A model generated the notes under the pieces. That model searched no databases. It worked only from the letters and a program-made list of their open reading frames with translations, and was not told the origin of the DNA. A stretch of DNA of 64,000 nt, from assembly GCA_021844945.1 (NCBI GenBank), contig JAKBSJ010000002.1, positions 230,965 through 294,964 on the forward strand, in the 5' to 3' direction. The stretch's first letter is position 1. Each line of letters starts with the position of its first letter. Of this stretch, positions 5,212 through 64,000 are shown in pieces. A program made the position numbers and the translations under genes. Source of the DNA: Thermoplasmata archaeon (GTDB lineage Archaea; Thermoplasmatota; Thermoplasmata; Lutacidiplasmatales; UBA184).

Positions 5212-5323
5212 CGTTGGCTCCGTTTGTCAGACGAGCGTCATACGCTCTAGCAACGACTCGGAGATTCGCTACTTAAACGTTTGTTTGGACCGGCGCTTGT
5301 GGCTAAAATCCCGGCGAGGAACG

Positions 5324-5356
5324 AATTTAGCGACAGGCGAGGGCAATTTAGCGACA
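5324..5356. promoter_or_regulatory. two exact 12-nt direct repeats AATTTAGCGACA spaced 21 nt apart, upstream of ftsZ
   Basis: The repeats are at 5324..5335 and 5345..5356, with a one-mismatch partial copy, TTTAGCTAC, at 5443..5451. They lie in the AT-richer 320-nt ftsZ upstream gap. A TATA-like TTTAAGT (minus-strand sense) is at about 5273..5279. Confidence 0.5.
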
Positions 5357-5531
5357 CGACGTTTGGACTCGGCGTTTGCGGTGATGATACCGGTGATGGC
5401 CGAGTCGAGGGCCGACGACTCGATCCTAGCTGCAAGAGACCCTTTAGCTACGAAACCCGAAGAACACGAACTCCGCTCCTGACACTAGACGCTATCCCGA
5501 AGGACGGAGCGGGTGGTTCCCGGCTCTCGAC

Positions 5532-9057: not shown

Positions 9058-12000
9058 GTGGAAGCGTATTTCCGGGCGATCGAGGGCGAGATCGAACGAG
9101 GTTATTCCGTGGCCGAGCGCGCCCGCAGCCTCGGCATCGACCCTGAGACCCGCCCGGAGATTCCCCGTGCCCAGGACATGGCGAGCCGGGTCGAGAAGCT
9201 GCTGGCCCACCTCGGCATCGATGGGATCGCCGACGAGATCCGCGCCCTCGCCCGGACGATGCCGCGGGAAGAGGTGGCGGTGGCGATCGCCCGCCGTCTC
9301 GCGAGCGACACGAGCCGGCCGGGGAGCGTCGCCCGACGTGTCGAAGCCGCCCTGCGTGTCGGCCTCGCGATCCTGACCGAAGGGATTCTCGTCGCGCCGC
9401 TCGAGGGGCTCGCCGAGGTCCACCTCGTCGACGGCCCCGAGGGGAGGTTCATCGAATTGTACTATGCCGGTCCCATCCGCGCGGCCGGCGGCACTGCCCA
9501 GGCGCTGAGCGTACTGCTCGCCGACGTGATCCGCCGGGACCTCCATCTCGCTGCGTACCGCGCGTCGCGCGAGGAGATCGGACGCTACCAGGAGGAGATC
9601 CCTCTCTACAAGCATTTCCAGCACCTCCAGTACGTCCCGACACCCGAGGAGATCTCGACGGTCGTGCGCCACGTTCCGGTCTGCATTTCGGGCGAGGCGA
9701 CGGAGGGCGACGCTGAGGTCAGCGCGTTCCGCAATCTCGATCGCGTGAAGACGAACGGGATCCGCGGCGGTGCCTGCCTCGTCATCGCGGAAGGCATGTG
9801 TCAGAAGGCTTCGAAGATCAAACGGATCGTCGACAAGCTCGCAATTCCAGATTGGGAGTTCTTGGACGATCTCGGGCACTCGACCGCGCACGAGGAGGAC
9901 GGCTCGGTTGCGAAGTACCTCGCCGACGCCGGCGTCGGTGGGCGACCGATCCTCGCGCACCCGAACCGACCCGGTGGATTCCGGCTCGTCTACGGCCGAG
10001 CACGAACTACGGGCCTCGCGGCGTGCGCGATCAACCCGGCGACGATGGTCCTCCTTCGGCATTTCGTGGCCGTCGGGACCCAGCTCAAGCTCGAGTACCC
10101 GGGCAAGGCGGCCGCGATGGGGCTCTGCGATCTGCTCGAAGGGCCGATCGTCGAGCTCTCCGATGGTACGGTGACGGCGGTGCACGATGTCGATCGGGCC
10201 GAAGCGCTCCTTCCGCAGATCCGTCGGATCGTCGATCTGGGAGAGATCCTCGTCGCCTACGGGGAGTTTCTCGAGAACAACCGCGCGCTTGTGCCGGGAG
10301 CCTATACGGTGGACTGGCACGAAGAGGAACTGCGCGCCGCGGGCGCGCCGGCGACCGAGGGAGCGGGGGCGGAGAGCTTTGCCGCGTCACTCGCGCTCGC
10401 CCGACGCTACCGCGTTCCGCTGCACCCGCGGTGGCTGCTCTTCTGGCACGACCTCACGAGTGCGGAGATCCGGGCCCTCGCGGAGCAGGTCGAGCGTTCC
10501 GGGGCCTGGCGGGATGGACGGCTCGAGCTTCCTTGGGACGAGGTCTGGCGCGAGCTGCTCGCCCGCCTGGGGTTCCTGCACACGCGTGGGCCCACGGGAC
10601 AAGTGCTCGGCGAGCCCGAAACCAGCGAGGCCCTCGTCGGCACGCTCGGCCTCGAGATCGTCGGCGGCCTCCTCGTGCGCAAGACCCTTCTCGATCCGGT
10701 CGACCCGGATCCGCTCGCCTACGTGAGCCGGCTCGCCGGCGCGACCGTCATGCCTCGCAGCCCTTCCCGGGTCGGTGCCCGCGTGGGTCGACCCGAGAAA
10801 GCGTACCAGCGTAAGATGCAGCCGAACGTTCACGGCCTCTTCCCCGTGGGCGAGGCCGGGGGCCCCTCGCGGTCCGTCGGCGAGGCGGTCCGACGCGCGA
10901 TGAAGGGCCAGCCCGTCCAGACGCAACTCGGGGTCCGGCTATGTCCGGCGTGCTCCCGGAGCTCGGTCTGGCCCCGGTGCTCCTGCGGAGCGCACACAGT
11001 AGCGAACGGGACCACCATCCAGGTCGCGTTCCCGGTCGACGAGCTCTGGGGAGACGCGTTGCAACGGCTCCGGCTCAACCGCGTTCCCCAGGTCAAGGGA
11101 GTCAAGGGGCTCACTTCGGTGGGGCATACCCCCGAACCGATCGAGAAGGCGATCCTACGGGCGGAGCACGGGATCTCGGTCTACCAGGATGGTACCGCGC
11201 GCTTCGACCTCATGGACCTGCCGCTCACCCACTTCCGCCCGATCGAGATCGGTACGGACATCGCGCGCCTCCGCGAGCTCGGCTACACCCAGGATTGGGC
11301 GGGCCGACCGCTCGAACGGGGCGATCAGCTGGTCGAGCTGCGGCCGCAGGACATCGTCGTGGCGCGATCATGCGGCCGGTATCTCCTCCACTTATCCCAA
11401 TTCCTCGACGACGAGCTCGTCCACCTCTACGGGCTCAGCCCTTTCTACCGGGCCCGGGTCCCCGAGGACCTTATCGGGGCCGTCGTCGCGGCCCTCGCGC
11501 CGCACACGTCGGGCGCGGTCGCGGGTCGCATCATCGGCTTCTCCGAGGCCGAGGCGTGTTTCGCGCACCCAATCTTCCACGCGGCGAAGCGGCGGAACTG
11601 CGACGGCGACGAGGACTCCGTCACCCTCCTGTTGGACGCTCTGCTGAACTTCTCCCGAGCGTACCTGCCCGAGACGCGCGGGGCGATGATGGACAAGCCG
11701 CTCGTCCTCACGACACGTCTGGACGCGACCGAGGTCGACAAGGAGGCCCACCATCTCGACCTCAACGACCGCTACCCGCTCGAGTTCTACCGAGCCGCCG
11801 CTCGGCGAGCGAACGCGAAGGACGTCGAGGCGCTCTTCGACACCGTCGGTCACCGGCTCGGCAGCGCTCACTCCCTCGACCTCTATGCCTTCACGCACGA
11901 TACCCACGACATCGCCCGTGGCCCAGTCCGATCGGCCGGTCGGGACGGCCGCGCGATGAGCGATATGGTCGAGCAGTCGGTGACGCTGATGACCCAGATC

Positions 12001-12423
12001 CGGTCGGTCGATGCGGCGGAAGCGATCGCGAGCATACTGACCACGCACTTCCTGCCCGACGCGATGGGAAACCTGCGCAGCTTCGCGACGCAGAAGTTCC
12101 GGTGCAAGACCTGCGGAACGAGCTACCGACGACCTCCTCTGTCGGGCCGATGCACCGCCGTCGGGCGCGGATCGAGCCCGTGCGATGGGGAGCTCCTGCC
12201 CACGGTTTACGAAGGCATGATCCGGAAGTACCTCGCCCTGAGCGCGCACCTGGGCGCTGCCGAGGGGGTGCCTCCGTACCTGCGCCAGCGGGTCGAGATC
12301 CTGACGCAATCGCTCGCGACCCTATTCCCCGGTTCGGACGAGCAAACGACGCTGGAGTCGTTCGCGGCGATCGACGCCACCGGCCCGTCGCACGACAACC
12401 CCCAAATACGCGAGCCCCGCTAG
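9058..12423 (+). CDS. polC: DNA polymerase II (PolD) large subunit DP2
   Basis: 1121 aa with a GTG start. The N-terminus MEAYFRAIEGEIERGYSVAERARSLGIDPE..IPRAQDMASRVE matches the DP2 N-terminus. Zn-finger clusters are present (CPACSRSSVWPRCSCG; KFRCKTCGTSY..CTAVGRGSSPCDG). The length is consistent with no intein. Confidence 0.95.
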   Translation: MEAYFRAIEGEIERGYSVAERARSLGIDPETRPEIPRAQDMASRVEKLLAHLGIDGIADEIRALARTMPREEVAVAIARRLASDTSRPGSVARRVEAALRVGLAILTEGILVAPLEGLAEVHLVDGPEGRFIELYYAGPIRAAGGTAQALSVLLADVIRRDLHLAAYRASREEIGRYQEEIPLYKHFQHLQYVPTPEEISTVVRHVPVCISGEATEGDAEVSAFRNLDRVKTNGIRGGACLVIAEGMCQKASKIKRIVDKLAIPDWEFLDDLGHSTAHEEDGSVAKYLADAGVGGRPILAHPNRPGGFRLVYGRARTTGLAACAINPATMVLLRHFVAVGTQLKLEYPGKAAAMGLCDLLEGPIVELSDGTVTAVHDVDRAEALLPQIRRIVDLGEILVAYGEFLENNRALVPGAYTVDWHEEELRAAGAPATEGAGAESFAASLALARRYRVPLHPRWLLFWHDLTSAEIRALAEQVERSGAWRDGRLELPWDEVWRELLARLGFLHTRGPTGQVLGEPETSEALVGTLGLEIVGGLLVRKTLLDPVDPDPLAYVSRLAGATVMPRSPSRVGARVGRPEKAYQRKMQPNVHGLFPVGEAGGPSRSVGEAVRRAMKGQPVQTQLGVRLCPACSRSSVWPRCSCGAHTVANGTTIQVAFPVDELWGDALQRLRLNRVPQVKGVKGLTSVGHTPEPIEKAILRAEHGISVYQDGTARFDLMDLPLTHFRPIEIGTDIARLRELGYTQDWAGRPLERGDQLVELRPQDIVVARSCGRYLLHLSQFLDDELVHLYGLSPFYRARVPEDLIGAVVAALAPHTSGAVAGRIIGFSEAEACFAHPIFHAAKRRNCDGDEDSVTLLLDALLNFSRAYLPETRGAMMDKPLVLTTRLDATEVDKEAHHLDLNDRYPLEFYRAAARRANAKDVEALFDTVGHRLGSAHSLDLYAFTHDTHDIARGPVRSAGRDGRAMSDMVEQSVTLMTQIRSVDAAEAIASILTTHFLPDAMGNLRSFATQKFRCKTCGTSYRRPPLSGRCTAVGRGSSPCDGELLPTVYEGMIRKYLALSAHLGAAEGVPPYLRQRVEILTQSLATLFPGSDEQTTLESFAAIDATGPSHDNPQIREPR

Positions 12424-23326: not shown

Positions 23327-24247
23327 GTGCCGATGTCGGTTGAGGAGGAGGTGCGCCGGCTGAAGGAAGAACGCAATGCCGTGCTGCTCGCCCACAACTA
23401 TCAGCTCCCCGAGGTCCAGGACATCGCGGACTACGTCGGCGACTCCCTCTACCTTTCCCGGCAGGCGATGGAGACGGACCGGCCGGTGATCGTCTTCGCG
23501 GGGGTGCGGTTCATGGCCGAGACCGCCAAGATCCTCAACCCGACGAAGACGGTCCTCCTTCCCGATCTCACGGCCGGCTGCAGCCTCGCCGACGCGATCA
23601 CCGCGGAACAGCTGCGCACGTGGAAGTCCGAGCACCCCGGCGCCGTGGTCGTCTCCTACGTCAACACCTCGGCCGAGGTGAAGGCGGAGAGCGACTATTG
23701 CTGCACGAGCTCGAACGCGGTCCGGGTCGTCAACTCGATCCCGGCCGATCGGGAGATCCTCTTCCTCCCCGACATGTTCCTCGGCGACTACGTGCGCACG
23801 CAGACCGGCCGCACGTCGCGCACGATGCACCTGTGGCCAGCGGACTGCCACGTACACGGCCGGATTCGGCCCGAGATGATCGCCCACCTGCGCTCCGAGC
23901 ACCCCGGCGCCCCCCTGATCGCCCACCCCGAGTGCGGGTGCGCTTCCGAGTCACTCCCCCACGTGGACCAGGTCCTGTCGACCGACGGCATGGTCCGTTT
24001 CGCGAAGGAAACGAAGGCGCCCGAGGTCCTGGTCGCGACGGAGGTCGGTATCCTGCACCGGATGCGGCAGCTCAATCCCACGACCCGGTTCACTCCGGTC
24101 GACGCGGGCGCGATCTGCCCGTTCATGAAGAAGACCCATCTCGCGGACGTGCGGGACGCGTTGAAGCTCAACCGCTACGAGATCGACGTGCGGCCGGACG
24201 TGGCCGAGCGCGCGCGCCGGGCGCTCGAGCGCATGGTCGCGTCCTGA
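23327..24247 (+). CDS. nadA: quinolinate synthase
   Basis: It has LLAHNYQLPEVQDIADYVGDSL.LSRQA, VRFMAETAKILNP and HPEC. Confidence 0.9.
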   Translation: MPMSVEEEVRRLKEERNAVLLAHNYQLPEVQDIADYVGDSLYLSRQAMETDRPVIVFAGVRFMAETAKILNPTKTVLLPDLTAGCSLADAITAEQLRTWKSEHPGAVVVSYVNTSAEVKAESDYCCTSSNAVRVVNSIPADREILFLPDMFLGDYVRTQTGRTSRTMHLWPADCHVHGRIRPEMIAHLRSEHPGAPLIAHPECGCASESLPHVDQVLSTDGMVRFAKETKAPEVLVATEVGILHRMRQLNPTTRFTPVDAGAICPFMKKTHLADVRDALKLNRYEIDVRPDVAERARRALERMVAS

Positions 24248-25917
24248 CCGGGGCGCGCGGACGCCGGCGATTCGAGGTCCGCGAGGCGGAGCGCGTTGCC
24301 CACGTCGGACGCTTTCGCCCAGGCCCGCCGCGCGAACCCGAGCGAGATCGGTCCGGTCGGATCTTCGGGCGGTCGGTCGAAGCCCGTGGCGACGTGAACG
24401 GCCCCGCCGCGCCGCAACAACTCGCGCGCCCCGTCCGAGTCGAGCCGTTCTGGGCCCGGTCCCACCTCGATCCAGAGGCCGTGGGAGGCTGCGAAGGCGA
24501 GCCACCCCTCCCAACGCTCTCGCTCCGCCGCATCGTCCGGCGCCGGTCCGAGGTGGCTGACGAGGCGCCAGCCGGTTCCGAGACGTTGTGTCGCCGGAGG
24601 TGGGGGTCCTTGGGCTCGCAGCACTCGGAAGTCGACCTCTCGGTCCGCCTCTCCGTTCGTGACGGTCGCGAATTCTCCCCCGACGAGCACCCGAGCCTCG
24701 CCGGGCCGTCGCCGCTCCCGACGGACGGCGAGGCGCTGACGGGTCTCCGCCGGGAGCTCGGCCGGATGGCCCTCCTCGTCCGTTCCGTGCACGAGGATGC
24801 CCACGTAGTCGAGCCGACGCCGTCGGGCCTCGGCGAGAGCTCGATCGAGGTCGTCCGGGGTCGCATCGGCCGCCAGGCGACCGTGCCAATCCCCCCGGAG
24901 GTCCGCGAGCTCGACGAGCTGAGGGACCGAATCCGTGGTGGCGAGGTCGATCTCGCCGCGGTCCTCGCGCATTTCGGGCGGGATCCAGCTCAGGCCGATG
25001 GCGTCGTAGACATCGTACTCCGTTCGGCCGGCGATCCGCCGCTCGCCGCGATAGACGCCGTACTCATTGACCTTGAGCCCGAGGTCCTTGGCGAGCGTGC
25101 GCAATCGCACGTTGTGGTCCTTGGAGCCGGTGAAATAGACGAGCGCGGCGCCGTAGGACTCGAGGTCGACCACCCGCACGTCCACCTGCAGCCCGCCCTC
25201 GAGGACCACGGTCATCTTGGTGTCGCCCCGCAGCAGGACGTCCAGGACGTCGGGTCCCTGGGCGACACGGTCGAAGACCTCCGTGGACCGCCGGCTCCCC
25301 ACCAGAAGGTCCACGTCGCCGATCGTCTCCCGGCATCGACGCAGGCTCCCGGCGATCTCGGCCCGTTCCTCCCCCGTCAGGCGCTCGCGGATCGCGGCGA
25401 CCAGCCGCTGGGCCCGAGGCCATGCTTCGGCGATCGGGGTGCGGGCTCCGGCCGGCCGGGCTCCCGCGGCCTCGCGGAACTGGGCGATCTTGCGCTCGCC
25501 GAACCCTTTCGCTCCGGACAGCCGCCCCGCGTCGATCGCCGTTCGGAGTGCCGAGGGGCTCTCTACCCGGAACTCGATCCAGAGGCGTCGCGCCGTCTTA
25601 GGGCCGATGCCGGGTAGCCGCATCAGCTGGACGACGCCGGTGGGTATCTCGGTCCGGAGCTGATCCAGGTATCCTAGGCGGCCGGTGGCAAGGAACTCGG
25701 TCAGCTTCTCCGAGATCGCTTCGCCAATCCCCGGGATGGCGCGCAGTTCGCCGCGATCGGCGTACTTCGAGAGCGGCTCCGGAAGGGACTCGATGGAACG
25801 AGCGGCCCGGCGATACGCCTCGGGCTTGAACTGCTCCCCCTGGAGATCGAGCAGGTCGGCGATCGACCGAAGGAGCTCGGCAGCTTCCGTGTTAGAGACC
25901 ATGGCCGAAAGGCGCAT
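24175..25917 (-). CDS. polX: family X DNA polymerase with C-terminal PHP domain
   Basis: The N-terminus NTEAAELLRSIADLLDLQGEQFKPEAYRRAARSI and HhH motifs (IPGIGEAISEKL; LPGIGPKTARRL) are present, with a PHP-like C-half. The 3' end overlaps nadA by 73 nt (convergent). Confidence 0.85.
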   Translation of the reverse strand: MRLSAMVSNTEAAELLRSIADLLDLQGEQFKPEAYRRAARSIESLPEPLSKYADRGELRAIPGIGEAISEKLTEFLATGRLGYLDQLRTEIPTGVVQLMRLPGIGPKTARRLWIEFRVESPSALRTAIDAGRLSGAKGFGERKIAQFREAAGARPAGARTPIAEAWPRAQRLVAAIRERLTGEERAEIAGSLRRCRETIGDVDLLVGSRRSTEVFDRVAQGPDVLDVLLRGDTKMTVVLEGGLQVDVRVVDLESYGAALVYFTGSKDHNVRLRTLAKDLGLKVNEYGVYRGERRIAGRTEYDVYDAIGLSWIPPEMREDRGEIDLATTDSVPQLVELADLRGDWHGRLAADATPDDLDRALAEARRRRLDYVGILVHGTDEEGHPAELPAETRQRLAVRRERRRPGEARVLVGGEFATVTNGEADREVDFRVLRAQGPPPPATQRLGTGWRLVSHLGPAPDDAAERERWEGWLAFAASHGLWIEVGPGPERLDSDGARELLRRGGAVHVATGFDRPPEDPTGPISLGFARRAWAKASDVGNALRLADLESPASARPGQDATMRSSARRARSATSGRTSIS

Positions 25918-48035: not shown

Positions 48036-48207
48036 CTCGCCCGTCTCCGGCCGCGCCACCACAGGACGCGATATTTACGGTTTCGGGCGCCCGGGAGGCC
48101 CCGCATCGCCTGCGGGGAACCGGTCCGGGGCCTTGGGGCGGGCGCGGCCGGACCGCCCTCGTACAACTACCTCCTTAACGGACGAGAGCGTACCGAATAG
48201 GCCGTCG

Positions 48208-48972
48208 ATGGCCGACATCCTGTTGGGGACGAGCGGGTGGGACTACCCCGAGTGGGTCGGGCCGGTCTACCCGAAACGGGGGGCCGAGGACAAACTCCGT
48301 TACTACGCCGGCCGGTTCCCGATCGTCGAGGTCAACTCGACCTTCTACCACCTCCCTTCCGTCGCGGTAGCCGCCTCCTGGGTCCGTCGCACTCCTTCCC
48401 GCTTCCGTTTCGCCGCGAAGTTTCCGCAATCGATCACCCACGAGCGGGAGCTGGTCGGGGCCGAGGAGGAACTGCGCCAGTTCCTCGCCGTTCTGAGGCC
48501 GTTGCGCGAGGCCGGAAAGTTCGCCGCCGCGCTCCTTCAGCTTCCCCCGTCGCTCAAGTTCGTCCCGGGCACCGTGCGTTCCTTCTACGAGAGCCTGCCT
48601 GCCGATCTACCGGTCGCCGTCGAGTTCCGCGAGCCGTCGTGGCTCGCGCCGGAATCGTTCGATCTCTTGCGCGAGTTCCACCTTGCCTACGTGATCGTTG
48701 ATGAGCCCCACCTCCCCCTCCAACTCGAGACGACCGCTCCGTTCGCCTACGTGCGCTGGCACGGCCACGGGTCGAACGTGTGGTACGACTACACCTACTC
48801 CGCCGACGAGCTCGCGGCGTGGGTCCCCCGCGTGCGAGAGGTTGCCGAAAAGGTCCCGACCGTCTACGGGTTCTTCAACAACCATTTCCGGGGCGACGCC
48901 GCCGCGAACTGCGCCTCCCTCACCGAGCTCCTCGGCCTGTCGCCCCCGTCGTGGCGTTCGCGCCTCGACTGA
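48208..48972 (+). CDS. DUF72 (UPF0759) family protein
   Basis: It has LLGTSGWDYPEWVGPVYP, YYAGRFPIVEVNSTFYHLP and RFAAKFPQSITHE. Confidence 0.8.
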   Translation: MADILLGTSGWDYPEWVGPVYPKRGAEDKLRYYAGRFPIVEVNSTFYHLPSVAVAASWVRRTPSRFRFAAKFPQSITHERELVGAEEELRQFLAVLRPLREAGKFAAALLQLPPSLKFVPGTVRSFYESLPADLPVAVEFREPSWLAPESFDLLREFHLAYVIVDEPHLPLQLETTAPFAYVRWHGHGSNVWYDYTYSADELAAWVPRVREVAEKVPTVYGFFNNHFRGDAAANCASLTELLGLSPPSWRSRLD

Positions 48973-49084
48973 TCGCGCCTCCCGTCTCCGCGCGCCGGTC
49001 GGCGAAGCCGGAACGCTGTCCCCTGGGCGTTTCACGTACCCTCGTCCCGTCGCTTTAGAAGCGAGTTGACGTGAAACCGTCGCC

Positions 49085-49957
49085 ATGAGCGCGATCCCAT
49101 TGGCCTCCCCGCTTCCGAGCTTCGTGCCTTCGGCGGACGAGTTTGTCGAGGAGCCGGTGCAAAGCGAAGCGATCCCGAGGCTCCCGAGCGCTCGCTCCCG
49201 TACGCCCGTCGCCCCCACGAGCGCGCACGTTCGACCACGGCTTCCGGAATCCCCGGGGATCCTCGCATGGCTCGCCCGTCGCTTCCAACCCGGCGAAGCG
49301 ACGATCTGGCTCGGCCCCTCTTCGGCCGTCACCCCCCTCCTCGAGCTCACCTACGCGGGTAGCGCGTCGGTCGAGGGGGAGATCTCCCTGATCGAGGGTG
49401 CGAACCGCTTCCATCCGTTCCGCATCGGCGAGCTCGGCCGCGACTTTGGGGTCCCTCCCGAGGAGGTCCTCCGGCGGATTCGGCTCGCTCGGGCGTTCAC
49501 CGCGTACCAGCTCGTCGCCCTCGTGGATGGTTGGTCGATCGAAGCCCGACGGCGCCGTCCCACGCTCCTCGTTGCCCACGAGCTCCCCACCCTGTTCGAG
49601 ACCGCGGAGATACGGTCCGAGGAGCGCGACGCGCTGTTGCGGCACGTCGCCCGGACGCTGCGAACGGTCATCGATCGCGCTCCCTACCCGTTGCTGGTCG
49701 CGCTGGAGGGCGGCTTCGATCGTTTTCCGGGCCTTCTCGAGACCGGGCCACGGTTCGCCGACCTCATCACGTTCCGCCGTCACCCGCGGGGCCTCGCGTT
49801 GCGCGCGTACCGCGACGACGCGCGGGTCCGCCTCGTCCGGCGACGGGACGGTCAGCGCGGGATGGAGGAGTTCGCCGACGACCGCACCGAAGAACCGGAG
49901 GTGATCCCTTGGGCCGCACCGCACCCACCTACCGTCAGGCACTGGACGAGCGGCTGA
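49085..49957 (+). CDS. RecA/RadA/KaiC-fold-like protein lacking Walker A lysine (putative inactivated ATPase)
   Basis: GEATIWLGPSSAVTPLLEL sits where G-x4-GK[ST] would be expected. ISLIEGANRFHPFRIGELGRDFGVPPEEVLRRIRLARAFTAYQLVALV resembles the RadA/RadB core. PTLLVAHELPTLF stands in for Walker B. The fold call is pattern recognition only. Confidence 0.45.
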   Translation: MSAIPLASPLPSFVPSADEFVEEPVQSEAIPRLPSARSRTPVAPTSAHVRPRLPESPGILAWLARRFQPGEATIWLGPSSAVTPLLELTYAGSASVEGEISLIEGANRFHPFRIGELGRDFGVPPEEVLRRIRLARAFTAYQLVALVDGWSIEARRRRPTLLVAHELPTLFETAEIRSEERDALLRHVARTLRTVIDRAPYPLLVALEGGFDRFPGLLETGPRFADLITFRRHPRGLALRAYRDDARVRLVRRRDGQRGMEEFADDRTEEPEVIPWAAPHPPTVRHWTSG

Positions 49958-50154
49958 AGCGCTGGGAGGCGTTCGAGCGTCTCCTGACGACCCCGGAAGA
50001 GCGGGAGGCGTTCGGCCTTCTTCGGTCCGGAGCGCGACGCTACGTCGCCCAAGCGACCCAGGTCGGGAGCCCGGATCTATTGGAGTCGATCCTGCTCTCC
50101 GTCCTGCTCGACATCGCCCAGCGCCTTCCTCCCCGCGACGCCAACGCGGAGTAG
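49909..50154 (+). CDS. small helical protein (start uncertain, TTG 49909 proposed)
   Basis: It is the C-terminal part of ORF 49531..50154: YRQALDERLKRWEAFERLLTTPEEREAFGLLRSGARRYVAQA..LLESILLSVLLDIAQRL. It ends 14 nt before the polymerase ATG. Confidence 0.3.
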   Translation: MGRTAPTYRQALDERLKRWEAFERLLTTPEEREAFGLLRSGARRYVAQATQVGSPDLLESILLSVLLDIAQRLPPRDANAE

Positions 50155-50168
50155 GGCGCCCCGGCGCG

Positions 50169-52457
50169 ATGTCCGCAGAGGGCTGGTTGCTCGACATCAC
50201 CGACGCGAGCGACGGGCGATCCGTCCTATTGTGGACGAAGGAACGTAGGAGCGGATCGGTGCGTCCGGAGGCGGTCGCGTTCCGGCCGCCGTTCTACGTC
50301 GCCGCGCCGCGCGCGGAGCGCCGTGGGCTCGCACGCGACCTGCGCAACGACCCGCTCGTCGACGAGGTCATCGAGCGGACGGAGCGCCCCTCGCTCTTCG
50401 ACGCCCGGCCGGTCACGCTGCTCGCGGTCCGTCCCCGATCGAACCGGTCCCGTCGGGCCCTCGCGGAACGGATCGATCGCCGCGGGAACTTCCACCGCTA
50501 CACGCTCTACGATGTCGATCTCACAGCGCCCCAGCTCTGCTATCTCACGAACGATCTCTACCCCTTCGCCCCGATCGTCCGGAGGGACGGCGTTTGGGCC
50601 GCGACCGAGCCGGCGGAGACCGTCGACTACGAGCTCCCCCCGCTCCGTCTCGCGCGACTCGAGGTCCGATGGACGGGAGGCACGCGCCGGCCGGGTCCCG
50701 GGGATCGGATCGCGGAGATCTGTCTCGGCCCCGATCGTCTCGAGGGGCCGGAGGAGGAGCTCCTGCGGATCCTTCCCTCCGCGATCGCCCAGCGGGATCC
50801 CGACGTCGTGCTCACCGACGGGGGGGACGCGCTCGACCTTCCGTGGCTGTACGAGGGAGCGGCCCGCTGCGGTCTCACCGACGCGGAGTTCGTTCTCGGG
50901 CGCGCCCCGTCCCGATGGACCCCTTCACGGGGCGCCCGGTCGTACATGAGCTACGGCCGGATCCTCCACTCCGCGGCCGCGTTCAACCTCCCCGGCCGTT
51001 TCCATATCGACCGGGAGAACTCCTTTCTCTTCGAAGACACCGAGCTGCCCGGCCTCATCGACGCCGCCCGTCTCTCCCGCCTGAGCCTCCAGTCGGTCGT
51101 GCGGCAATCTCCCGGGACGAGCTTCAGTGCGATGGAGATCGCCGAAGCGATCCGTTCCGGTGTCCGAGTCCCTTGGAAGAAGAACCGGCCCGAGCGTTTT
51201 CGGCCGGCCGATCACCTGGTTGCGGCGGACCGAGGCGGTACGATCCTGCGGCCACCCATCGGCGTTCACGACCACCTGGACGAGTTCGATTTCGCGAGTC
51301 TCTTCCCCCAGATCATGGTCCGGCACAACCTCTCTGCGGAGACGCTCGACTGCCGGTGCTGCCCCCGAAGCCCGCACGTCGCTCCCGGGCTCGGCTACCG
51401 CTCCTGCACGAAGCGTGTCGGCCTCCTACCGCGGACGCTGCTCCCGCTGCTCCGGCGTCGGACCGCGCTCAAGGCGGCCATGCGGGCGAGCCCTCTCGGC
51501 TCGGCGGAGCGTCGCCGGCTCCACGGCCGCGTGAAGATGCTCAAGTGGATTCTCGTGACGGCGTTCGGCTACCAAGGCTACCGCAACGCGCGCTTCGGGC
51601 GGATCGAGTGCCACGAGGCGATCAACGCCTACGCGCGCGAGCTGTTCGCCGACATGGTCCGCGAGGCGGAGCGGGCCGGCTACCGCTTCGTCCACGGGAT
51701 CGTCGACTCGATGTGGCTCGCCCCGGGTCCGGGGTGCGTCCCTACGGAGGAGTTCGCTCGGGCGATCGGCCAGCGCTACCGTCTCCCGCTCGGCTACGAG
51801 GGTCGGTACCGATGGATCGTCTTCCTGCCGACCGTCTCCGATGGATTCGGCGTGCCGAACCGTTACTACGGGATCTACGAAACGGGCGAGTTCAAGCTCC
51901 GCGGGATCGGCGGACGCCGACACGACACGACCGGGGTCGCCCGGCGCCTCGAAGGGGAGATCCTCCAGCTCCTCGCCCCGGCGCGGGACGCTGCCGAGTT
52001 CCGCCGTCTCCTCCCTCGTGCCCTCGCCCGGGCCGACCGGTTCGCCGAGCGTCTTCGGGCAGGGGACTGGCCGTGGACCGAACTGGTCATCACCCGGCGC
52101 ACGACCGCCGCGGTCGACGATTACGCGGTCTTCACCGATACCGTCAGCGCCCTGTACCAGTCCCGGGCGATCGGCCGGTCCCTGGCGCCGGGGGAGAAGG
52201 CGCGTTACGTCGTCCTCGACCGCCGCTCCCGTTCCTGGCGGAATCGGGTCCGCCTCGCCGCAACCATGCAGGGCGACGAGCGGTACGACGTCGACGCCTA
52301 CCTCGATCTGCTCGCGCGGGAGGTCGAGACCCTCCTCGCTCCGTTCGGCGTCACCCGCGCGGATCTGCTCGCTCGTTGGGGAGCCCGCGCCACCCCACCG
52401 CGGGACCGGTATGCCTCTCCGAGCCGTCCGCACCAGCTGCGGCTGGCTCCAGGCTAG
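50169..52457 (+). CDS. family B DNA polymerase, divergent PolB2-like (Exo I lost, motif C altered)
   Basis: Motif A DFASLFPQI is present. Motif B is degenerate (KWILVTAFGYQGY against K...NS.YG). Motif C is HGIVDS against YGDTDS. Exo I is LARLEVR against FDIET. Exo II-like is GGDALDLPWLY. Confidence 0.8.
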   Translation: MSAEGWLLDITDASDGRSVLLWTKERRSGSVRPEAVAFRPPFYVAAPRAERRGLARDLRNDPLVDEVIERTERPSLFDARPVTLLAVRPRSNRSRRALAERIDRRGNFHRYTLYDVDLTAPQLCYLTNDLYPFAPIVRRDGVWAATEPAETVDYELPPLRLARLEVRWTGGTRRPGPGDRIAEICLGPDRLEGPEEELLRILPSAIAQRDPDVVLTDGGDALDLPWLYEGAARCGLTDAEFVLGRAPSRWTPSRGARSYMSYGRILHSAAAFNLPGRFHIDRENSFLFEDTELPGLIDAARLSRLSLQSVVRQSPGTSFSAMEIAEAIRSGVRVPWKKNRPERFRPADHLVAADRGGTILRPPIGVHDHLDEFDFASLFPQIMVRHNLSAETLDCRCCPRSPHVAPGLGYRSCTKRVGLLPRTLLPLLRRRTALKAAMRASPLGSAERRRLHGRVKMLKWILVTAFGYQGYRNARFGRIECHEAINAYARELFADMVREAERAGYRFVHGIVDSMWLAPGPGCVPTEEFARAIGQRYRLPLGYEGRYRWIVFLPTVSDGFGVPNRYYGIYETGEFKLRGIGGRRHDTTGVARRLEGEILQLLAPARDAAEFRRLLPRALARADRFAERLRAGDWPWTELVITRRTTAAVDDYAVFTDTVSALYQSRAIGRSLAPGEKARYVVLDRRSRSWRNRVRLAATMQGDERYDVDAYLDLLAREVETLLAPFGVTRADLLARWGARATPPRDRYASPSRPHQLRLAPG

Positions 52458-54890: not shown

Positions 54891-56181
54891 GAGACGCTCG
54901 CCGGCCCGACCGGACGTCTACCTTCTCCCCGCAGTCGTCGGAGGGGGCCTCGGCGACATTGACGAGGTACTGTGCGCGGGTCGGTATCTCGCCGACGCCG
55001 GCTTCCCCCTCACGCTCTACCGCGCGCGAGGACGACCTCTTCCCCGGAGCGTCGACGGCCCGTGGAGTTGGCCCCCGCACACGCGAACGGATCGCCTCGT
55101 CCGTCGGGCGCCGAAGGCGCTGACGATCGCTCCGGCGTGGGGGATTAGCGCCGCTCCTTCGCGTGACGAGCCGTACGGTCGGGGCGGACCGTGGGAGGAG
55201 GAGGCGGGGGAGATCGAGCGGACCTACGGCCCCGACGCGACCCTCCATCTGAGCCTGGAGGAGTTCGCCCGTACGTGGACCTCGCGGCGAGAGGTGAAGG
55301 AGCGCTGGCGAGAGGGAGGGATTCCTTCGCGAGAGATCCGACGCCGCGCGCGACGTCGTTCGTTCGCTCGGGAGGCCGCGCGCTTCCATGCATGGTACCG
55401 ACGGTTCCGGGCCTTCGATCGAGCGAACGTGGTCCATCTCTATGCGACGTTCCGGCCGGATCGCGCTTTTGCGCTCGAGTACCCCGAGGCGATCCAGTCG
55501 GGCCCCCTTTGGCCGATCCGGCCGGCCGGAACGGCGCCCGCTACGGACCGACGCGCGCGCTGGGTCTGGTACGCGAGCCCTGCGAGCGCCGAGCGGATCG
55601 CGGGGCGCGTGCTCCGGACCCTGGCGCGGTCCGACCGCCCTCCGTTCCTGTGCATCCGCTCGCCACGCCCATGGCCGCTGTCCATCGATCCCCGCTGCGG
55701 AGCGCTCGAGCTCGAACCCCGCTCTCCGTCCGCGTGGAGGAGCGAGTTCGACCACGCGCAGGTGAGGATCGTCACCGGAAGCCGAACGCTGCTCGAGGCG
55801 ATCGTGCAGGGCGGGCCGTTCCTCTACTTCAACGGCATCCTAGGGGCGGGAAGCGCCGCACGACGCCACCGACCCGAGAAGATCGATCGCCTGCGGGAGG
55901 TCGCCCGCCTTTCGCGATCGGCCCGCCGCGATCTGTCCGATTTTGCGCGGGGCCGTCGTGTCGAAGCCGTCGTGGAGCGCACCCTTCGGGACCCTCCCCG
56001 ACTCCCGGCCCGCTTCCGCGAGCATGTGCGCGGGCAGTTCGCGCCCGAGTGGGGGGACGCGGGCGCGCTCGTCGTGCGAATCGCGCGAGCGTGGGAGCGA
56101 ACGCCGCAACCCAGCGGCATCTTCGTTCGAGACCTGCGGGAGGCCGCTCGTCGATCCGTCCGGCGAACGCATGCAACCTAG
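54883..56181 (+). CDS. uncharacterised protein, possible GT-B-like glycosyltransferase fold
   Basis: 432 aa overlapping the GNAT gene by 8 nt. The N-terminus DVYLLPAVVGGGLGDIDEVLCAGRYLADAG and the C-terminus VRIVTGSRTLLEAIVQGGPFLYFN resemble the layout I recall for EarP/DUF2331-type GT-B enzymes. This is low-confidence and not computed. Confidence 0.35.
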   Translation: MPRRRSPARPDVYLLPAVVGGGLGDIDEVLCAGRYLADAGFPLTLYRARGRPLPRSVDGPWSWPPHTRTDRLVRRAPKALTIAPAWGISAAPSRDEPYGRGGPWEEEAGEIERTYGPDATLHLSLEEFARTWTSRREVKERWREGGIPSREIRRRARRRSFAREAARFHAWYRRFRAFDRANVVHLYATFRPDRAFALEYPEAIQSGPLWPIRPAGTAPATDRRARWVWYASPASAERIAGRVLRTLARSDRPPFLCIRSPRPWPLSIDPRCGALELEPRSPSAWRSEFDHAQVRIVTGSRTLLEAIVQGGPFLYFNGILGAGSAARRHRPEKIDRLREVARLSRSARRDLSDFARGRRVEAVVERTLRDPPRLPARFREHVRGQFAPEWGDAGALVVRIARAWERTPQPSGIFVRDLREAARRSVRRTHAT

Positions 56182-56416: not shown

Positions 56417-56995
56417 ATGACCGTCGCGCGTCTCGGACGTTCGTTCTTCGATCGGCCGACGCGCATCGTGGCGCGGCAACTGATCGGGTGCGAGCTCTGG
56501 ACGCGCGACCCGGGCGTCGAGCGCGGCGTGCGGATCGTGGAGACAGAAGCGTACGTCGGCCGCGACGAAGCCAACCACGCGAACCGGGGTATGACCCGCC
56601 GCAATCGTTCGATGTTCGGCGCTCCCGGGACGCTCTACGTCTACCGCATCCACCGGGTGGTCTGCGCGAACGTCGTCACCCGTCCCGGACAGGCCGTCCT
56701 GATCCGTGCAGGGGAACCCCTGGGGGGGACGCGCGAACTTTGGGCGGGAGGTCCGGGCCGGCTGTGCCGCGCATTGGGGATCACGATCGCGGACGATGGG
56801 ACCGACGCGGCCGCGGGCGCTCGGATCCGCTTCCGTCCTTGGCGCCGTCGGCCCCGCGCGATCGTGAGCGGACCGCGTATCGGGATCTCCCGCGCGGTGG
56901 AACGGCCATTACGGTTCGCCGAAGCGGGATCTCGATACGTTTCCTCTCCGCGCCCGTGGGCGGGTTCCGCGGGGAAGCGCCCTACTTCAGCTTAG
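56417..56995 (+). CDS. mpg: DNA-3-methyladenine glycosylase (AAG/MPG family)
   Basis: It has FFDRPTRIVARQLIG, IVETEAYVGRDE.ANHA, APGTLYVYRIH and GPGRLCRALGIT. Confidence 0.85.
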   Translation: MTVARLGRSFFDRPTRIVARQLIGCELWTRDPGVERGVRIVETEAYVGRDEANHANRGMTRRNRSMFGAPGTLYVYRIHRVVCANVVTRPGQAVLIRAGEPLGGTRELWAGGPGRLCRALGITIADDGTDAAAGARIRFRPWRRRPRAIVSGPRIGISRAVERPLRFAEAGSRYVSSPRPWAGSAGKRPTSA

Positions 56996-59226: not shown

Positions 59227-59423
59227 GGGATCTTCGATTCGTCCAGCGGAGCGTTCGGATCGGGCGTGTCCATCTCGATCACGAACGATCCCATGTAGCC
59301 GCACGTCTGGCAGCGGTATACCTGCCCGGTGATCAACCCGGCTTCGTAGACGAGCCGGGCGGAGCGGCACTGGGGGCAAAGGAGGATCGTATCGCGAGGG
59401 TCCAAGGACCTACGATGCTTCAT
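59223..59423 (-). CDS. small zinc-ribbon protein
   Basis: [47 protein letters not shown] has two CxxC pairs. Its start lies inside the last 14 nt of gyrA. Confidence 0.5.
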
Positions 59424-61992
59424 CGCTGTCTCCGTCCGCGTCGGGCCCCTGCGCCGAACCGCGGCCGTCGTCCGTCGGCGGCGCCGTAGGCGCCTCGGGA
59501 TCCTCGAGGGCTTCGGCTCCGTTGTCCGGGTCGACGCCACCGGCTAGGGCGACCGCGTCCCGGACCTCGTCACCCTCGTCCAGGCGAATGACACGCACGC
59601 CCATCGTGCTGCGTCCCTGGGAACGGATCCCCTTCACCGGCGCGCGGATCGTGATGCCGTTGCGCGTCGTCACGAGGACCTCCGCATCCTCGCTCGTCGG
59701 GAGGACGGCAACGACGGATCCGTTCCGACCGCCGGTCGCGATCGTCCGGACGCCTTTCGCTCCGCGCTGGGTCTTGCGATACTCCTCGATCGGCGTGCGC
59801 TTGCCGTATCCCTGGCTCGTCAGGGAGAGGAGGTAGGGCAACTGCGCTCGTACCGGGGCCATCGCGACGACCCGGTCACTCTTCTCGTCGCTCAGGCGGA
59901 CCCCGATCACGCCGTAGGTCGCCCGCCCCATGGGACGCACGTCCGAGAGCGGGAAGCGGACCAGCTGCCCGGCGTGGGTCGCCAGGATCACCTCGACCGA
60001 TGGGTCGTCGATCAACGCCACGTCGACGAGCTCGTCGTTCTCGAGAAGGATCGCCTGGATGCCGCTCGTACGTATGTTCTGGAAGTCGGCGAGCGCGGTC
60101 CGCTTCACGAGCCCCGTGCGGGTCGCGAAGAGCAACGACGCTTCGGCGGTCATGTCGCGGACCGGCAGCAACGTCTGGATCCGCTCGCCGTCCTTGAGCT
60201 TGGGAAGGAGGTTGATCACTGCCTTGCCTTTGGAGTGTCGGCTCCCCTCGGGGAGCTCGTAAGCCTTGAGTCGGTAGACCCGCCCCAGGTTCGTGAAGAA
60301 GAGCACGTCGTCGTGGGTCCGGGTCACGAACGTCCGGATGACGAAATCCTCCTCCTTCGTCTCCATCTGGACCAGGCCCCGTCCGCCCCGGCGCTGGCGT
60401 CGGTACTGGTCGAGCGGAAGGCGCTTGATGTATCCGTCCCGCGTGACCACGACAACCACGTCGGTGTCCGGGATTAGGTCTTCTAGCGTGCGGGCGGTGA
60501 ACGCGGGAACGATCCGCGTGCGGCGCGGGTCGCCGAATTTCTGCTTGAGCTCGGTCAGCTCGGTGACGATGAGCCCGTCGAGCTCCGTCTTCGAGGCGAG
60601 GATCGCCTTCAGCCGACGGATGAGCGCCTCCTTCTCCTCCTTCTCCTTCAGGATCGCCTCGCGCTCGAGCGCGGTGAGCCGGGCGAGGCGCATGTCGAGG
60701 ATCGCCTTCGCCTGCTCGCTCGAGAGGAGGAACTTGCCCATGAGCGACGCCTCGGCCGCGGCGGCGTCCTTGGACCGTCGGATGACCCGGATGACCTCGT
60801 CGATGTGATCGATCGCGGTGAGAAAGCCCTCGAGGAGATGGAGCCGCTCCTCGGCCTTCTTCAGCTCGAACTGCGTGCGTCGGGTGAGGACCTCTCGGCG
60901 CTGGTCGATGTGCAGCTGGAGCAGGTCCCGCAGCGGGAGGACGCGCGGTCGACCGTCGACGATGCACAGGTTGATCACGCCATAGCTCGACTCGAGCGGT
61001 GTGTGCTCGTAGATGCGGTTGAGCACGATCTCGGCGGGCACGTCGCGTCGCAGCTCGAGGACTACGCTCGTTCCGTTCCGATCGGACTCGTCCCGAAGGT
61101 CGGTGATTCCGTCGATCCGCTTCGATTTGACGAGATCGGCGATCAAAAGGAGCAGGTTCGATTTGTTGACCTCGTACGGAATCTCGGTGATGACGATCTC
61201 TTCCTTGCCATCCCGCTCCCGGGTCTCGGCGGTTCCCCGGATGTGGATCATCCCGCGGCCGGTCTCGTAGGCCTCCCGGATCCCTTCCCGGCTCAGGGCT
61301 CCTCCCGTGGGGAAATCGGGCCCGGGAATGAATTTCATCAGCTCGTCGAGGTCCGTCTGCGGTTTCTTGAGCAGCAGCAGGAGCCCGTCGACAATCTCGC
61401 CGAGATTGTGCGGCGGCATGTTGGTTGCCATGCCGACGGCGATCCCGGCCGAGCCGTTGATCAAGAGATTCGGGAGTTTCGCGGGAAGGTAGGCCGGCTC
61501 CTTGAGGGTCCCATCGAAGTTGTCGCTCCACTCAACGGTGTCGCTCTCGATGTCCTGAAGCAGCTCTTCGGCGAGCCGGGAGAGACGGGCCTCGGTGTAC
61601 CGCATCGCGGCCGGCGAGTCCCCATCGATCGATCCGAAGTTTCCCTGCCCTTCGACCAACGGGTAGCGCAGGCTGAACGACTGCGCCATTCGCGCGAGCG
61701 CATCGTAGACCGAGAGATCGCCGTGCGGGTGGTACTTCCCCAGCACCTCGCCGACGGTGCGCGCGCTCTTGCGGAACGCCTTGTCGTGCGTCGCACCGGA
61801 TTCCCACATCGACCACAGGATGCGGCGCTGGACCGGCTTCAGGCCATCTCGGCCGAGCGGCAGGGCCCGGCCGATGATTACGCTCATCGCGTAGTCGATG
61901 TAAGACCGGTGCATCTCCCGCTCCAGCGGGTGATCGCGGACGCGGTCCGCCGCGCCCTCGGTCTCGAGGGTCGGAAGCCCGGGATCGGTCAT
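59410..61992 (-). CDS. gyrA: DNA gyrase subunit A
   Basis: It has [40 protein letters not shown] and AMRYTE (active-site Tyr), plus a beta-pinwheel C-terminal domain and an acidic tail. The start is at the internal ATG 61992. Confidence 0.95.
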
Positions 61993-63383
61993 GGAGCGGC
62001 TCCGGCGGACGGTCGGGGCGCGAGCTGACCTGCGATCTCGCGGTCGAGGATGGCGAGAAAGGCGTCGCGCGAACCATCGGGGATTGTGGCGCCGCTGGCG
62101 ATCCGATGGCCTCCCCCTTCCCCTCGGACCTCCTGAGCGGCGGTACGGCACGCGCTCGCGAGGTCCAGCCCTCGAGCGACGAGCTCCGTCGTCCCACGCC
62201 CGCTGACCTTGATCGGTCCGCCACCCTCGTGCGAGAACGCGAAGACCGGACGCTGCGGATCGAGGAGATAGTTCATCGCGAGTCCTGCTTGCGTGCCCGC
62301 GAGCGCAGTCTCCGGGCTTTCGAACCACTGGAGAGACCGCATCGAATTTATGCCCCCCGCTTCGAGGCGAAGGAGGCCCTCGAGGACCCCTCGACGCCAG
62401 CGTTCCTCGGCGGCCCGCGCGCGGTCCACGGCGGCCGCGTCCCCGAGGGCAATCGCGACCCCAGTGCCGGGCTCACCGGCCCGTCCGCACGCGTTCTGGA
62501 GGTCGGCCAGCTCCTCTGCGTCCATTCCCAACGAAGGGATCGACCACTGTTCTCGCCGGACCATCGCAGCGTAGGTCTCGTTGACCCCGGAGGCCCGCAA
62601 ACGGTCCATGAGCGCCTGCGCGAGCCGGTCCTCTTCCTCCGGAGCGAGCCGGTGGGGGGGGCGATGGCCGTCGATCGCAAGTCCGGCAAGGAGGTCCCGA
62701 ACGCCGTCCGGATGACCTGAGACGCCTCGGACGAACGGATCGACGCTCGTCTCCAGCGCGGTAGCGACGTTCCCCCCGCGGAGCGCGAGGCCCTGATGCG
62801 AAGTGATGAGGGATCGGTGGATCGCCTCCCTTACGAGCACGGCGTTGAGGCCCCGGAAGCCGCCGACATGCTGCCGATCCGCGATCGCTCCCGAGAGTCC
62901 CCACGGGGCGTTGTCCCAGTTCCGGCCGTCGAGGTGGATCGTGAACAACCACGTGAGCGTCGCCGCGCACATCTCGCTCATCCCATCGGTCCCCCAGTCG
63001 AGAGGGTTCACATGGGCAATCCGTCCCGTCCGTGGAGGAGGGTTGGAGTAGCGGTGGTGGTCGAGGACCACGACAGGGTGAGGGTGCTCGGCGAGAAGAT
63101 CGAGCCAGCTCGCTCCCGTGTCCACCACGAGGAGAGGCCCCGACGTGGCCCGCATCAGGTCGGCCATCCGCTCCCGCTCGACTCCGAGCAGCGCCGTCGC
63201 TTGCGTCGGATAGCCGAGCCGCGCGAAGGCGCGCAGTGCGCTCGAGGCGCTCGCGATCCCGTCTCCGTCGTAGTGGTAGATGACCCGCCAGCGCCCCGGG
63301 TGTTCGAGCACGAGGCCCTTTGCCTGGGCGAACTCCTCACCGTAGCGGGTGTCGGAAACGAAATCTTCGGGCCCTTGTGGCAT
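61989..63383 (-). CDS. recJ: DHH-family RecJ/GAN(Cdc45)-like nuclease
   Basis: It has [13 protein letters not shown] (DHH motif I/II region), VVVLDHH (DHH motif), and a DHHA1-like end, [10 protein letters not shown]. Its stop overlaps the gyrA ATG (ATGA). Confidence 0.75.
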
Positions 63384-63838
63384 CACTCCACCTGGAGGGC
63401 AGCCCCCGCGGCGGAGTAGCGCCACGTCTCGGGAAGGACCTTGTGGTCGCGGTAGTAGCGCGCCAGACGGCGGATCCGGGACTCGATGAGCGACAGGCCC
63501 CGCTGGTTCGCCAGGTCCTTCGGGTGCGTCTGCAGGTGGCGCTGGAGGTGGACGACCCGCTTGAGAAGGGCCTGGAGGTCCTCGGGAAGTTCCGTCTGGA
63601 TCCCTTGAACCCTCAGCAGGTCCGTCATCCGCTCGCCCGTGACCGCGCGGACCGAGGGGACTCCGTAGGAATCGCGCAAACGCTGGCCGACCTGCGCCGC
63701 AGTGAGCCCGGTCTTGGACAGGGATACGGCCTGCTCGACGACCTCCTCCCGGGTCTGAGTGACCCAGGCAGGCTTCGTCGCTGGGTACGGGCGGTGAGAA
63801 CCGGCCCGTCCCTTGCGGCTCGAGTGGATGCGCGACAC
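63383..63838 (-). CDS. rps15: 30S ribosomal protein S15 (uS15, S13e-type)
   Basis: 151 aa. It has HSSRKGRAGSHRPY and the C-terminal LSLIESRIRRLARYY. Confidence 0.9.
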   Translation of the reverse strand: MSRIHSSRKGRAGSHRPYPATKPAWVTQTREEVVEQAVSLSKTGLTAAQVGQRLRDSYGVPSVRAVTGERMTDLLRVQGIQTELPEDLQALLKRVVHLQRHLQTHPKDLANQRGLSLIESRIRRLARYYRDHKVLPETWRYSAAGAALQVE

Positions 63839-63862
63839 GGCTCCGCGCGGATTGAGGTCCTG

Positions 63863-63870
63863 TACTTAAG
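63863..63870 (-). promoter_or_regulatory. TATA-like CTTAAGTA 25-32 nt upstream of the rps15 ATG (leaderless-type spacing)
   Basis: The plus strand reads tacttaag at 63863..63870. It could also serve the divergent plus-strand gene that starts at about 63961. Confidence 0.45.
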
Positions 63871-63960
63871 CCTCGCCGGCGAGAAGGCCCTCCGAATGGG
63901 GCGGATCCACGCCCATCGCCGACCTCATACCTCCCTCGAACGTGGGGGTGCGGGAGCAGC

Positions 63961-64000
63961 GTGCCCGAGAAGGAATCGTTCGTCGTCACCCCCTACGAGG
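63961..64000 (+). CDS. 5' end of a plus-strand gene, possibly tryptophanyl-tRNA synthetase (13 codons only)
   Basis: GTG 63961 is followed by PEKESFVVTPYE. The F.VTPWE/YE string recalls the archaeal TrpRS N-terminus. This is too short to be sure. Confidence 0.2.
   Translation, partial: MPEKESFVVTPYE

Follow-up and report, generated by a model that had tools for sequence, protein, structure and literature searches.

A very probable group-1a iRadA-PPB2-PolB2 operon in an uncultured Thermoplasmata archaeon

Genes at the locus and their arrangement

The DNA analysed here (64,000 nucleotides of contig JAKBSJ010000002.1, called the window) has a GC content of 65-73% and is a segment of the chromosome of an uncultured Thermoplasmata archaeon. 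It carries three co-directional open reading frames (ORFs) that encode a protein of the RadA/Rad51 fold (iRadA), a small helical protein (PPB2) and a family-B DNA polymerase of the PolB2 clade (coordinates in Table 1). The first two overlap by 49 nt, the second and third are 14 nt apart, and a gene for a DUF72 protein ends 112 nt upstream of iRadA. An initial annotation, made from the sequence alone, had placed three closely spaced genes at these same positions, and we find them there. It had also put them forward as a candidate undescribed module, which they are not. An operon of PolB2 with an inactivated RadA and arCOG07300, a small alpha-helical protein of ~90 aa, was reported in 2013-2014 and predicted for archaea and some bacteria (Makarova et al. 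2014, PMC4104785). Timinskas, Timinskas and Venclovas (2025, PMC11791011) gave the two partners the names iRadA and PPB2 and sorted the operons by gene arrangement. Thermoplasmata operons appear in their supplementary table as "1a (iRadA-PPB2-PolB2)" with DUF72 upstream and with HGIVDS or HGIIDS as polymerase motif C. The trio in the window is very probably a standard group-1a iRadA-PPB2-PolB2 operon with DUF72 just upstream, and every sequence-level hallmark that was examined is present.

How well is the arrangement kept in relatives? One genome per GTDB species was scanned with an iRadA profile, which gave 213 confirmed relatives; the operon figures that follow refer to the best 80 of these 213, all of them metagenome-assembled genomes of Thermoplasmata, with iRadA identities of 50-93%. 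Searches with tblastn found the order iRadA-PPB2-PolB2 in every one of the 75 loci whose contig is long enough; in the five loci without PolB2 the contig ends within a few hundred bases. PolB2 follows PPB2 directly in 71 of the 75, and a DUF72 gene lies no more than 3 kb upstream of iRadA in 74/80. The initial annotation had staked its case on conservation of the trio in relatives, and because both the gene order and the DUF72 neighbor are kept across loci, the adjacency is not due to chance.

Mobile elements of archaea often carry family-B polymerases, casposons being among those mentioned (PMC4104785), and in one locus (L026, positions 4358-5797) an ORF that by its translation resembles a TnpB-type transposase sits between DUF72 and iRadA. 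Could the adjacency then be fortuitous, or the trio part of a mobile or viral element with a family-B polymerase of its own? This is improbable in the extreme, since 80 species share the gene order and the constant 49-nt overlap, GC is even along the window, the surrounding genes are housekeeping ones (a V-ATPase operon, DHPS, gyrase), and no integrase, Cas1 or terminal repeats were noted in the window. A mobile or viral PolB was rejected on the housekeeping flanks and the uniform GC.

Some loci depart from the compact arrangement. Two ORFs that look like membrane proteins by translation stand between PPB2 and PolB2 in L021 (7031-10497). L006 (4620-5822, minus strand), L008 and L012 are among the loci with an opposite-strand ORF, membrane-protein-like or DUF929-like by translation, between DUF72 and iRadA. 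L055, L070 and L077 have a PolB2 match that is either displaced or partial.

A RadA-fold protein without ATPase residues

The 290-aa iRadA protein matches the Pfam Rad51 family PF08423 (E 9.9e-6; 25.4 bits against a gathering score of 22). Its NCBIfam RAD51/RadA matches are weak, and a phmmer search of the PDB finds RadA/Rad51 chains (best E 1.8e-7). An AlphaFold2 model built on 36 homologs has a mean pLDDT of 77.9, rising above 90 for core residues 60-240, and its strand 72-76, helix 79-95 and strand 161-165 alternate in a way that fits a RecA-like core (~57-252). The initial annotation had called for Foldseek comparison of models of both smaller proteins. For iRadA the best 50 PDB matches are all RadA, Rad51, Dmc1 or Rad51-paralog chains (E 3e-11 to 8e-10, probability 1.0); for PPB2 it gave nothing significant, as described below.

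The ATPase residues are another matter, and the view that the protein lacks the Walker A Lys and the Walker B Asp was correct. In the family alignment the Walker A position reads G77-P-S-S-A-V-T83-P84, the family consensus is GPRxAVEP, and the position of the P-loop Lys is occupied by Glu in most homologs; the register is that of the canonical RadA P-loop, GxxxxGKT. At the position aligned with the Walker B Asp, all 36 homologs have a His (His165 in the window protein). Because residues 1-56 form no folded domain and are mostly modeled with low confidence, the N-terminal helical domain of RadA is absent. iRadA is thus a RecA/RadA-fold protein with a dead ATPase, a relative of the recombinases by fold and not itself a recombinase. 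Separately, the N-terminal extension of ~55 residues (49085-49250, plus strand; the region of residues 1-66) is a lineage-specific detail: it ends in a conserved LLPxxPxxFPWLARRF, in which L53, P54, P57 and W62 are invariant.

Toward its C-terminus iRadA has a PIP-box-like motif (Table 1) in which, among the 36 homologs, Q257 and G259 never vary and conservation is at least 90% at E261, E262 and F263; the model places a short helix at 260-263, inside the motif. The sequence QRGMEEFA shares its pattern with QSHLEAFG, published as the clamp motif of a Thermoplasmata iRadA. No canonical PIP box was seen at the C-terminus of PolB2: the window protein ends in HQLRLAPG, which has no aromatic residue; a Gln is conserved, and relatives end in Phe or Tyr. 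In the published survey (PMC11791011) a fraction of members have clamp-binding motifs, which are commoner in iRadA than in PolB2. It is probably iRadA that supplies the PCNA-binding motif in this lineage.

The small helical protein and its overlap with iRadA

The initial annotation had described a helical protein of about 80 aa, and the ORF indeed encodes 81 aa whose model consists of an N-terminal arm followed by three helices (8-25, 29-52 and 57-72). Translation starts at a TTG preceded by GGAGGTGA, giving the N-terminus M-G-R-T-A-P-T-Y-R9-Q, of which G2, R3, T4, P6, T7, Y8, R9 and Q10 are invariant in 33 homologs. Scans of the protein against Pfam and NCBIfam gave no match, the local copy of Pfam being one without PF26485, the precomputed family with which the homologs are annotated. 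The protein was therefore assigned to PPB2 by its MGRT motif, size, fold and position rather than by a match to a family library.

PPB2 is read in the -1 frame relative to iRadA. The overlap is 49 nt long, stop codon included, in each of the 68 sequences in which it was measured (67 loci and the window), and a Shine-Dalgarno-like sequence, mostly GGAGGTGA, stands 4 nt before the PPB2 start in 77/77 sequences (76 loci and the window). The start codon itself varies among these 77: GTG in 43, ATG in 29 and TTG in five. Because the overlap is read in another frame, the conservation of the iRadA tail (EEVIxW...RRSRSG) for the most part reflects the Shine-Dalgarno sequence and the PPB2 arm. Such an arrangement suggests that the two genes are translationally coupled. 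A programmed frameshift fusing iRadA and PPB2 was considered and set aside: inspection of the overlap by eye found no slippery heptamer, and a strong conserved Shine-Dalgarno sequence and a start codon are there instead. We did not find the fixed overlap and its conserved Shine-Dalgarno sequence in PMC4104785 or PMC11791011; it is a minor addition to them.

The polymerase

The initial annotation had classed the polymerase as PolB2-like, and all the comparisons we made agree. NCBIfam model NF004418 matches it at E 2e-124. The two top NCBIfam models score 416 and 369 bits and those named DNA polymerase I or II at most 92 bits. Pfam DNA_pol_B also matches. A published Thermoplasmata PolB2 aligns with it over the whole of an N-terminal stretch of 399 aa at 33% identity (E 7e-69), and in the block from motif B to motif C the identity is 55-65% to three published PolB2s as against 26-30% to Thermococcus PolB3. 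The N-terminal/exonuclease part cannot be aligned to PolB3, which aligns only from residue ~297. In sequence the enzyme resembles PolB2 more than it does PolB3 or PolB1. Residues 334-357 (VPWKKNRPERFRPADHLVAADRGG) match IPWKKNMPENWKTAEELLVADRGG at the same place in the published Thermoplasmata PolB2; within them P335-N339, E342 and D354-G357 are invariant in 66/66 PolB2s of the lineage.

The catalytic motifs were read from an alignment to Thermococcus PolB structures, which bears out the earlier reading of all three. Motif A (DFASLFPQI) is intact and keeps D374. In motif B (K-W-I-L-V-T-A-F-G-Y) V and T take the place of N and S. Motif C (HGIVDS), which aligns to Y-S/A-D-T-D-G of Thermococcus PolB, has I511 for the first Asp and keeps D513. 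Among the 66 lineage PolB2s D374 never varies, nor do H509, G510, V512, D513 and S514, and I511 is found in 58. Alignment to published PolB2 gives Exo I as L164-E165-V166-R167-W168, where canonical PolB sequences have FDIET. The initial annotation had both Exo I carboxylates lost. The site is degenerate, as it said, but with Glu for Asp and Arg for Glu the acidic residues are not cleanly lost. Alignment to reference polymerases, which it had also called for, confirms that not all carboxylates are present (I511 in motif C, LEVRW in Exo I), and the window polymerase does not have the hallmarks of the replicative PolB3 and PolB1 enzymes, namely a DxD motif C and Exo I-III with their carboxylates complete.

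Is such an enzyme still a polymerase? The degenerate exonuclease site, the loss of the first motif C Asp and the replacement of Asn-Ser in motif B are what one would expect if it were catalytically dead and the trio had a purely structural or regulatory role, for instance at stalled forks or in origin-linked regulation, and death was the original proposal for the 'inactivated' PolB2 (Rogozin 2008 and Makarova 2014, as set out in PMC4104785). Nevertheless, we consider this very unlikely. All 66 lineage members keep the motif A Asp and the second motif C Asp, which argues for selection on catalysis; no orc1/cdc6 gene adjoins the trio among the window ORFs scanned; and Sulfolobus Dpo2, which has the same I-x-D substitution, is active and is needed for targeted mutagenesis (as cited in PMC11791011). 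An active enzyme is favored over a dead scaffold because D374 and D513 are strictly retained. We take these two to be the metal-binding carboxylates.

Predicted complex and function

AlphaFold predictions in the literature assemble PolB2, iRadA and three PPB2 subunits into a PolB2:iRadA:PPB2x3 heteropentamer, or "mutasome", with ranking scores of 0.8-0.91. In these models the PolB2 loop before the D(K/R) motif binds iRadA as one RadA protomer binds the next, and the MGRT arm of one PPB2, with Arg3 and Arg9, inserts between PolB2 and iRadA (PMC11791011). By homology with Sulfolobus Dpo2 and with these models, one PolB2, one iRadA and a PPB2 trimer would assemble into a complex here too. PolB2 would be its catalytic subunit, devoid of proofreading and extending primer ends that are mismatched or distorted by a lesion. 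iRadA, from its inability to hydrolyze ATP, would be a structural subunit, gripped by a PolB2 loop that imitates a neighboring RadA protomer, and the MGRT arm of one PPB2 would insert between PolB2 and iRadA, beside the DNA.

The likely function is damage-induced translesion extension, as judged from Sulfolobus Dpo2, which is described as an active polymerase and an extender of mispaired termini, as the sole damage-induced polymerase and as required for targeted mutagenesis (all as cited in PMC11791011). Induction of Dpo2 by damage depends on Orc1-2 (PMC6061795). For the Thermoplasmata organism we infer that the three proteins form a complex and bind the clamp, that the polymerase acts in translesion synthesis and that damage induces it. 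The initial annotation, which had guessed at a damage-tolerance polymerase with a RecA-like accessory protein, agrees with the literature on this point. As a whole its interpretation holds in part: it was right on the anatomy and in guessing at damage tolerance, and wrong on "undescribed". In archaea with PolB2 complexes, these are believed to be where damage-induced mutations chiefly come from, which makes them a counterpart of bacterial Pol V and eukaryotic Pol zeta.

Several points weigh against assigning the trio to the published operon and its function. The functional data all come from Sulfolobales, which are distant, and Thermoplasmata PolB2 is known from sequence alone; the PolB2:iRadA:PPB2x3 complex is known in the literature from in silico models. 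Confidence in the model of the PPB2 monomer is no more than moderate (pLDDT 73), and a Foldseek search with it returned no significant PDB match. The PIP-like motif of iRadA is missing the second aromatic residue. The NCBIfam scores of the polymerase fall short of the curated thresholds (416 bits where 692 are required, 369 where 516 are), on which ground we regard the lineage as divergent from the NCBIfam seed families. Finally, DUF72, SRAP and orc1/cdc6 are the genes enriched near polB2 (PMC11791011), as typical but not obligatory neighbors, and no orc1/cdc6 or SRAP gene is found among the ~40 ORFs of the window that were scanned.

The upstream element and DUF72

The locus offers one lead, a conserved element ahead of iRadA. 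It spans ~40 nt and consists of GTTTCA, then CTCCCGAGCCGCCGC, then TTTAGAGCG. A TATA-like box at 49054-49059 lies 26-31 nt ahead of the iRadA ATG, a distance that fits a leaderless or near-leaderless transcript. Written as GTTTC-N20-TTTAGA, the element is present upstream of iRadA in 79/80 loci, ~30-60 nt before the start. The consensus of 58 unique sites is cGTTTCAacgtCtCCCGAgCcGCCGCTTTAGAGCG, and a position weight matrix of the element has a single match in the 64-kb window. From its position and conservation it is a putative promoter. We did not find it discussed in PMC4104785 or PMC11791011, and it too is a minor addition.

The GTTTC core is identical to the pentamer core of the Orc1-2 damage-response element of Sulfolobales, an ANTTTC element with the consensus AATAGTTTCRG (PMC6061795). 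The shared pentamer may be a coincidence, and its position relative to the TATA box differs. That the iRadA element is the operator of a DNA-damage regulon in Thermoplasmata is a doubtful proposition, though worth stating for what would follow. Were it true, and were an Orc1/Cdc6 paralog to bind the element, Orc1-2-type damage signaling would extend from Crenarchaeota to Thermoplasmatota, and, given the weaker element found ahead of DUF72 in some genomes, this regulon would also take in a putative lesion endonuclease.

That weaker element, GTT[TC]C followed by a TATA-like sequence, lies ~40-60 nt before DUF72 in nine loci (L011, L013, L032, L035, L036, L037, L041, L060 and L075), a hint that this gene and the PolB2 operon are regulated together. 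In the window itself, the DUF72 promoter has CTTAAC at 48174-48179 and no GTTTC at the matching distance; the gene probably starts at ATG 48208, in an ORF open from 48172. DUF72 proteins are TIM barrels structurally related to UV-damage endonuclease (PMC11791011). Might DUF72 then be an obligatory fourth component, lesion incision being coupled to gap filling by PolB2? Its presence upstream of iRadA in 74/80 loci, the similar element in nine of them and the structural relation just mentioned all speak for this, but a 112-nt intergenic spacer separates it from the operon, which would have its own promoter, other genes often intervene between DUF72 and iRadA, the DUF72 promoter of the window is without the GTTTC element, and the association has been published as an enrichment and not as a subunit (PMC11791011). 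On balance we think an obligatory role unlikely.

Features of the window

Table 1. Positions of the operon, its sequence features and other genes of the window (numbered from the first nucleotide of the window)
Feature	Position	Strand	Basis
MutY-like protein, HhH-GPD plus NUDIX	388-1545	-	
ORF, 477 aa	5532-6965	-	no significant Pfam family
DinB_2 superfamily protein	7053-7565	-	
PolD DP2	9058-12423	+	
PolX	24175-25917	-	
V-type ATPase A subunit ORF, 1042 aa; apparent intein in P-loop	44171-47299	-	intein read from translation only
DUF72 gene	48208-48972	+	Pfam PF01904, E 7.3e-67
Putative promoter element GTTTC-N20-TTTAGA, conserved	49029-49059	+	read from sequence; upstream of iRadA in relatives
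iRadA, inactivated RadA/Rad51-fold protein, 290 aa	49085-49957	+	Pfam, phmmer, AlphaFold2, Foldseek, family alignment
PIP-box-like motif Q257-R-G-M-E-E-F-A264 in C-terminal region of iRadA; candidate PCNA-binding motif	49853-49876	+	conservation in homologs
Shine-Dalgarno sequence GGAGGTGA for PPB2, within iRadA coding sequence	49897-49904	+	sequence, homologous loci
PPB2 (arCOG07300 family), 81 aa, TTG start, arm MGRTAPTYRQ	49909-50154	+	motif, size, fold, position
PolB2, family-B DNA polymerase of PolB2 clade, 762 aa, exonuclease domain decayed	50169-52457	+	NCBIfam, Pfam DNA_pol_B, PDB alignment
PolB2 loop P335-W-K-K-N...A-D354-R355-G-G357, D(K/R) motif and preceding segment	51171-51239	+	conservation; role from PMC11791011
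Polymerase motif A, D374-F-A-S-L-F-P-Q-I; metal-binding Asp kept	51288-51314	+	PDB alignment
Polymerase motif C, H509-G-I-V-D513-S; IVD for DxD, second Asp kept	51693-51710	+	PDB alignment
ORF, 432 aa as tested	54898-56181	+	no significant Pfam family
Methylpurine DNA glycosylase	56417-56995	+	
GyrA	59410-62328	-	
DHH/DHHA1 (RecJ-like) protein	61989-63989	-	

The operon lies among housekeeping genes: a V-type ATPase operon, ferredoxin, a HEAT-repeat protein, a GNAT acetyltransferase, methylpurine glycosylase, DHPS, GyrA and a DHH/DHHA1 protein. The two genes downstream of PolB2 are those for the HEAT-repeat protein and then GNAT, both on the plus strand; in this region the GC3-based gene caller wrongly chose some antisense ORFs. 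Beyond them, 2.4 kb downstream of PolB2, comes the 432-aa ORF of Table 1. More distant in the window are PolD DP2, PolX, the MutY-like glycosylase, a class II ribonucleotide reductase and FtsZ. The initial annotation had noted PolD elsewhere in the window, as well as a DNA glycosylase, PolX, MutY, RecJ and gyrase, none of them next to the module. This is correct: the window has many genes of DNA metabolism and none of them adjoins the PolB2 operon.

Comparison with known systems

With the published PolB2 operon the locus shares the three families and their order, the IVD motif C, the D-R motif with its PWKKN loop, the MGRT arm, an iRadA without ATPase residues or N-terminal domain, a candidate PIP-like motif in iRadA and not in PolB2, and DUF72 upstream. 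It differs in having a fixed 49-nt overlap between iRadA and PPB2 where separate or fused genes are described, a TTG start, the ~55-residue iRadA extension, no adjacent orc1/cdc6 or SRAP, and the GTTTC-N20-TTTAGA putative promoter. None of these differences is essential. The window adds one more ordinary instance of the system, and the locus should be annotated as an iRadA-PPB2-PolB2 operon; the conserved GTTTC element, the fixed overlap and the near-universal DUF72 neighbor in this lineage could possibly help work on regulation and expression.

The only experimentally studied PolB2 is that of the Sulfolobus/Saccharolobus Dpo2 locus, which has a homologous polymerase, the I-x-D motif C and both partners. 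The Sulfolobales operon, however, has the order PPB2-PolB2-iRadA (group 3a), and the host here is a euryarchaeal-type Thermoplasmata archaeon that encodes PolD.

Outside the archaea, the E. coli Pol V mutasome (UmuD'2C-RecA-ATP) is similar in that a translesion polymerase binds a RecA-family protomer through an oligomerization-like motif and a small subunit inserts its N-terminal arm near the active site (PMC11791011). In Pol V, though, the catalytic subunit belongs to the Y family, an active RecA is borrowed from the filament where the archaeal system has a dedicated dead paralog, and the small subunit is a dimer where PPB2 is predicted to be a trimer; the two systems are homologous in the RecA fold only. 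Eukaryotic Pol zeta (Rev3-Rev7x2-Pol31-Pol32) is likewise a multisubunit family-B enzyme with an inactivated exonuclease that acts as a damage-linked extender past lesions (PMC11791011), but none of its accessory subunits is related to those of PolB2, and a RecA-fold partner is absent. Finally, iRadA shares the ATPase-core fold of canonical archaeal RadA and eukaryotic Rad51 (Foldseek E ~3e-11, target-normalized TM ~0.65) and differs from them in lacking the Lys and Thr of Walker A, the Asp of Walker B and the N-terminal HhH domain.

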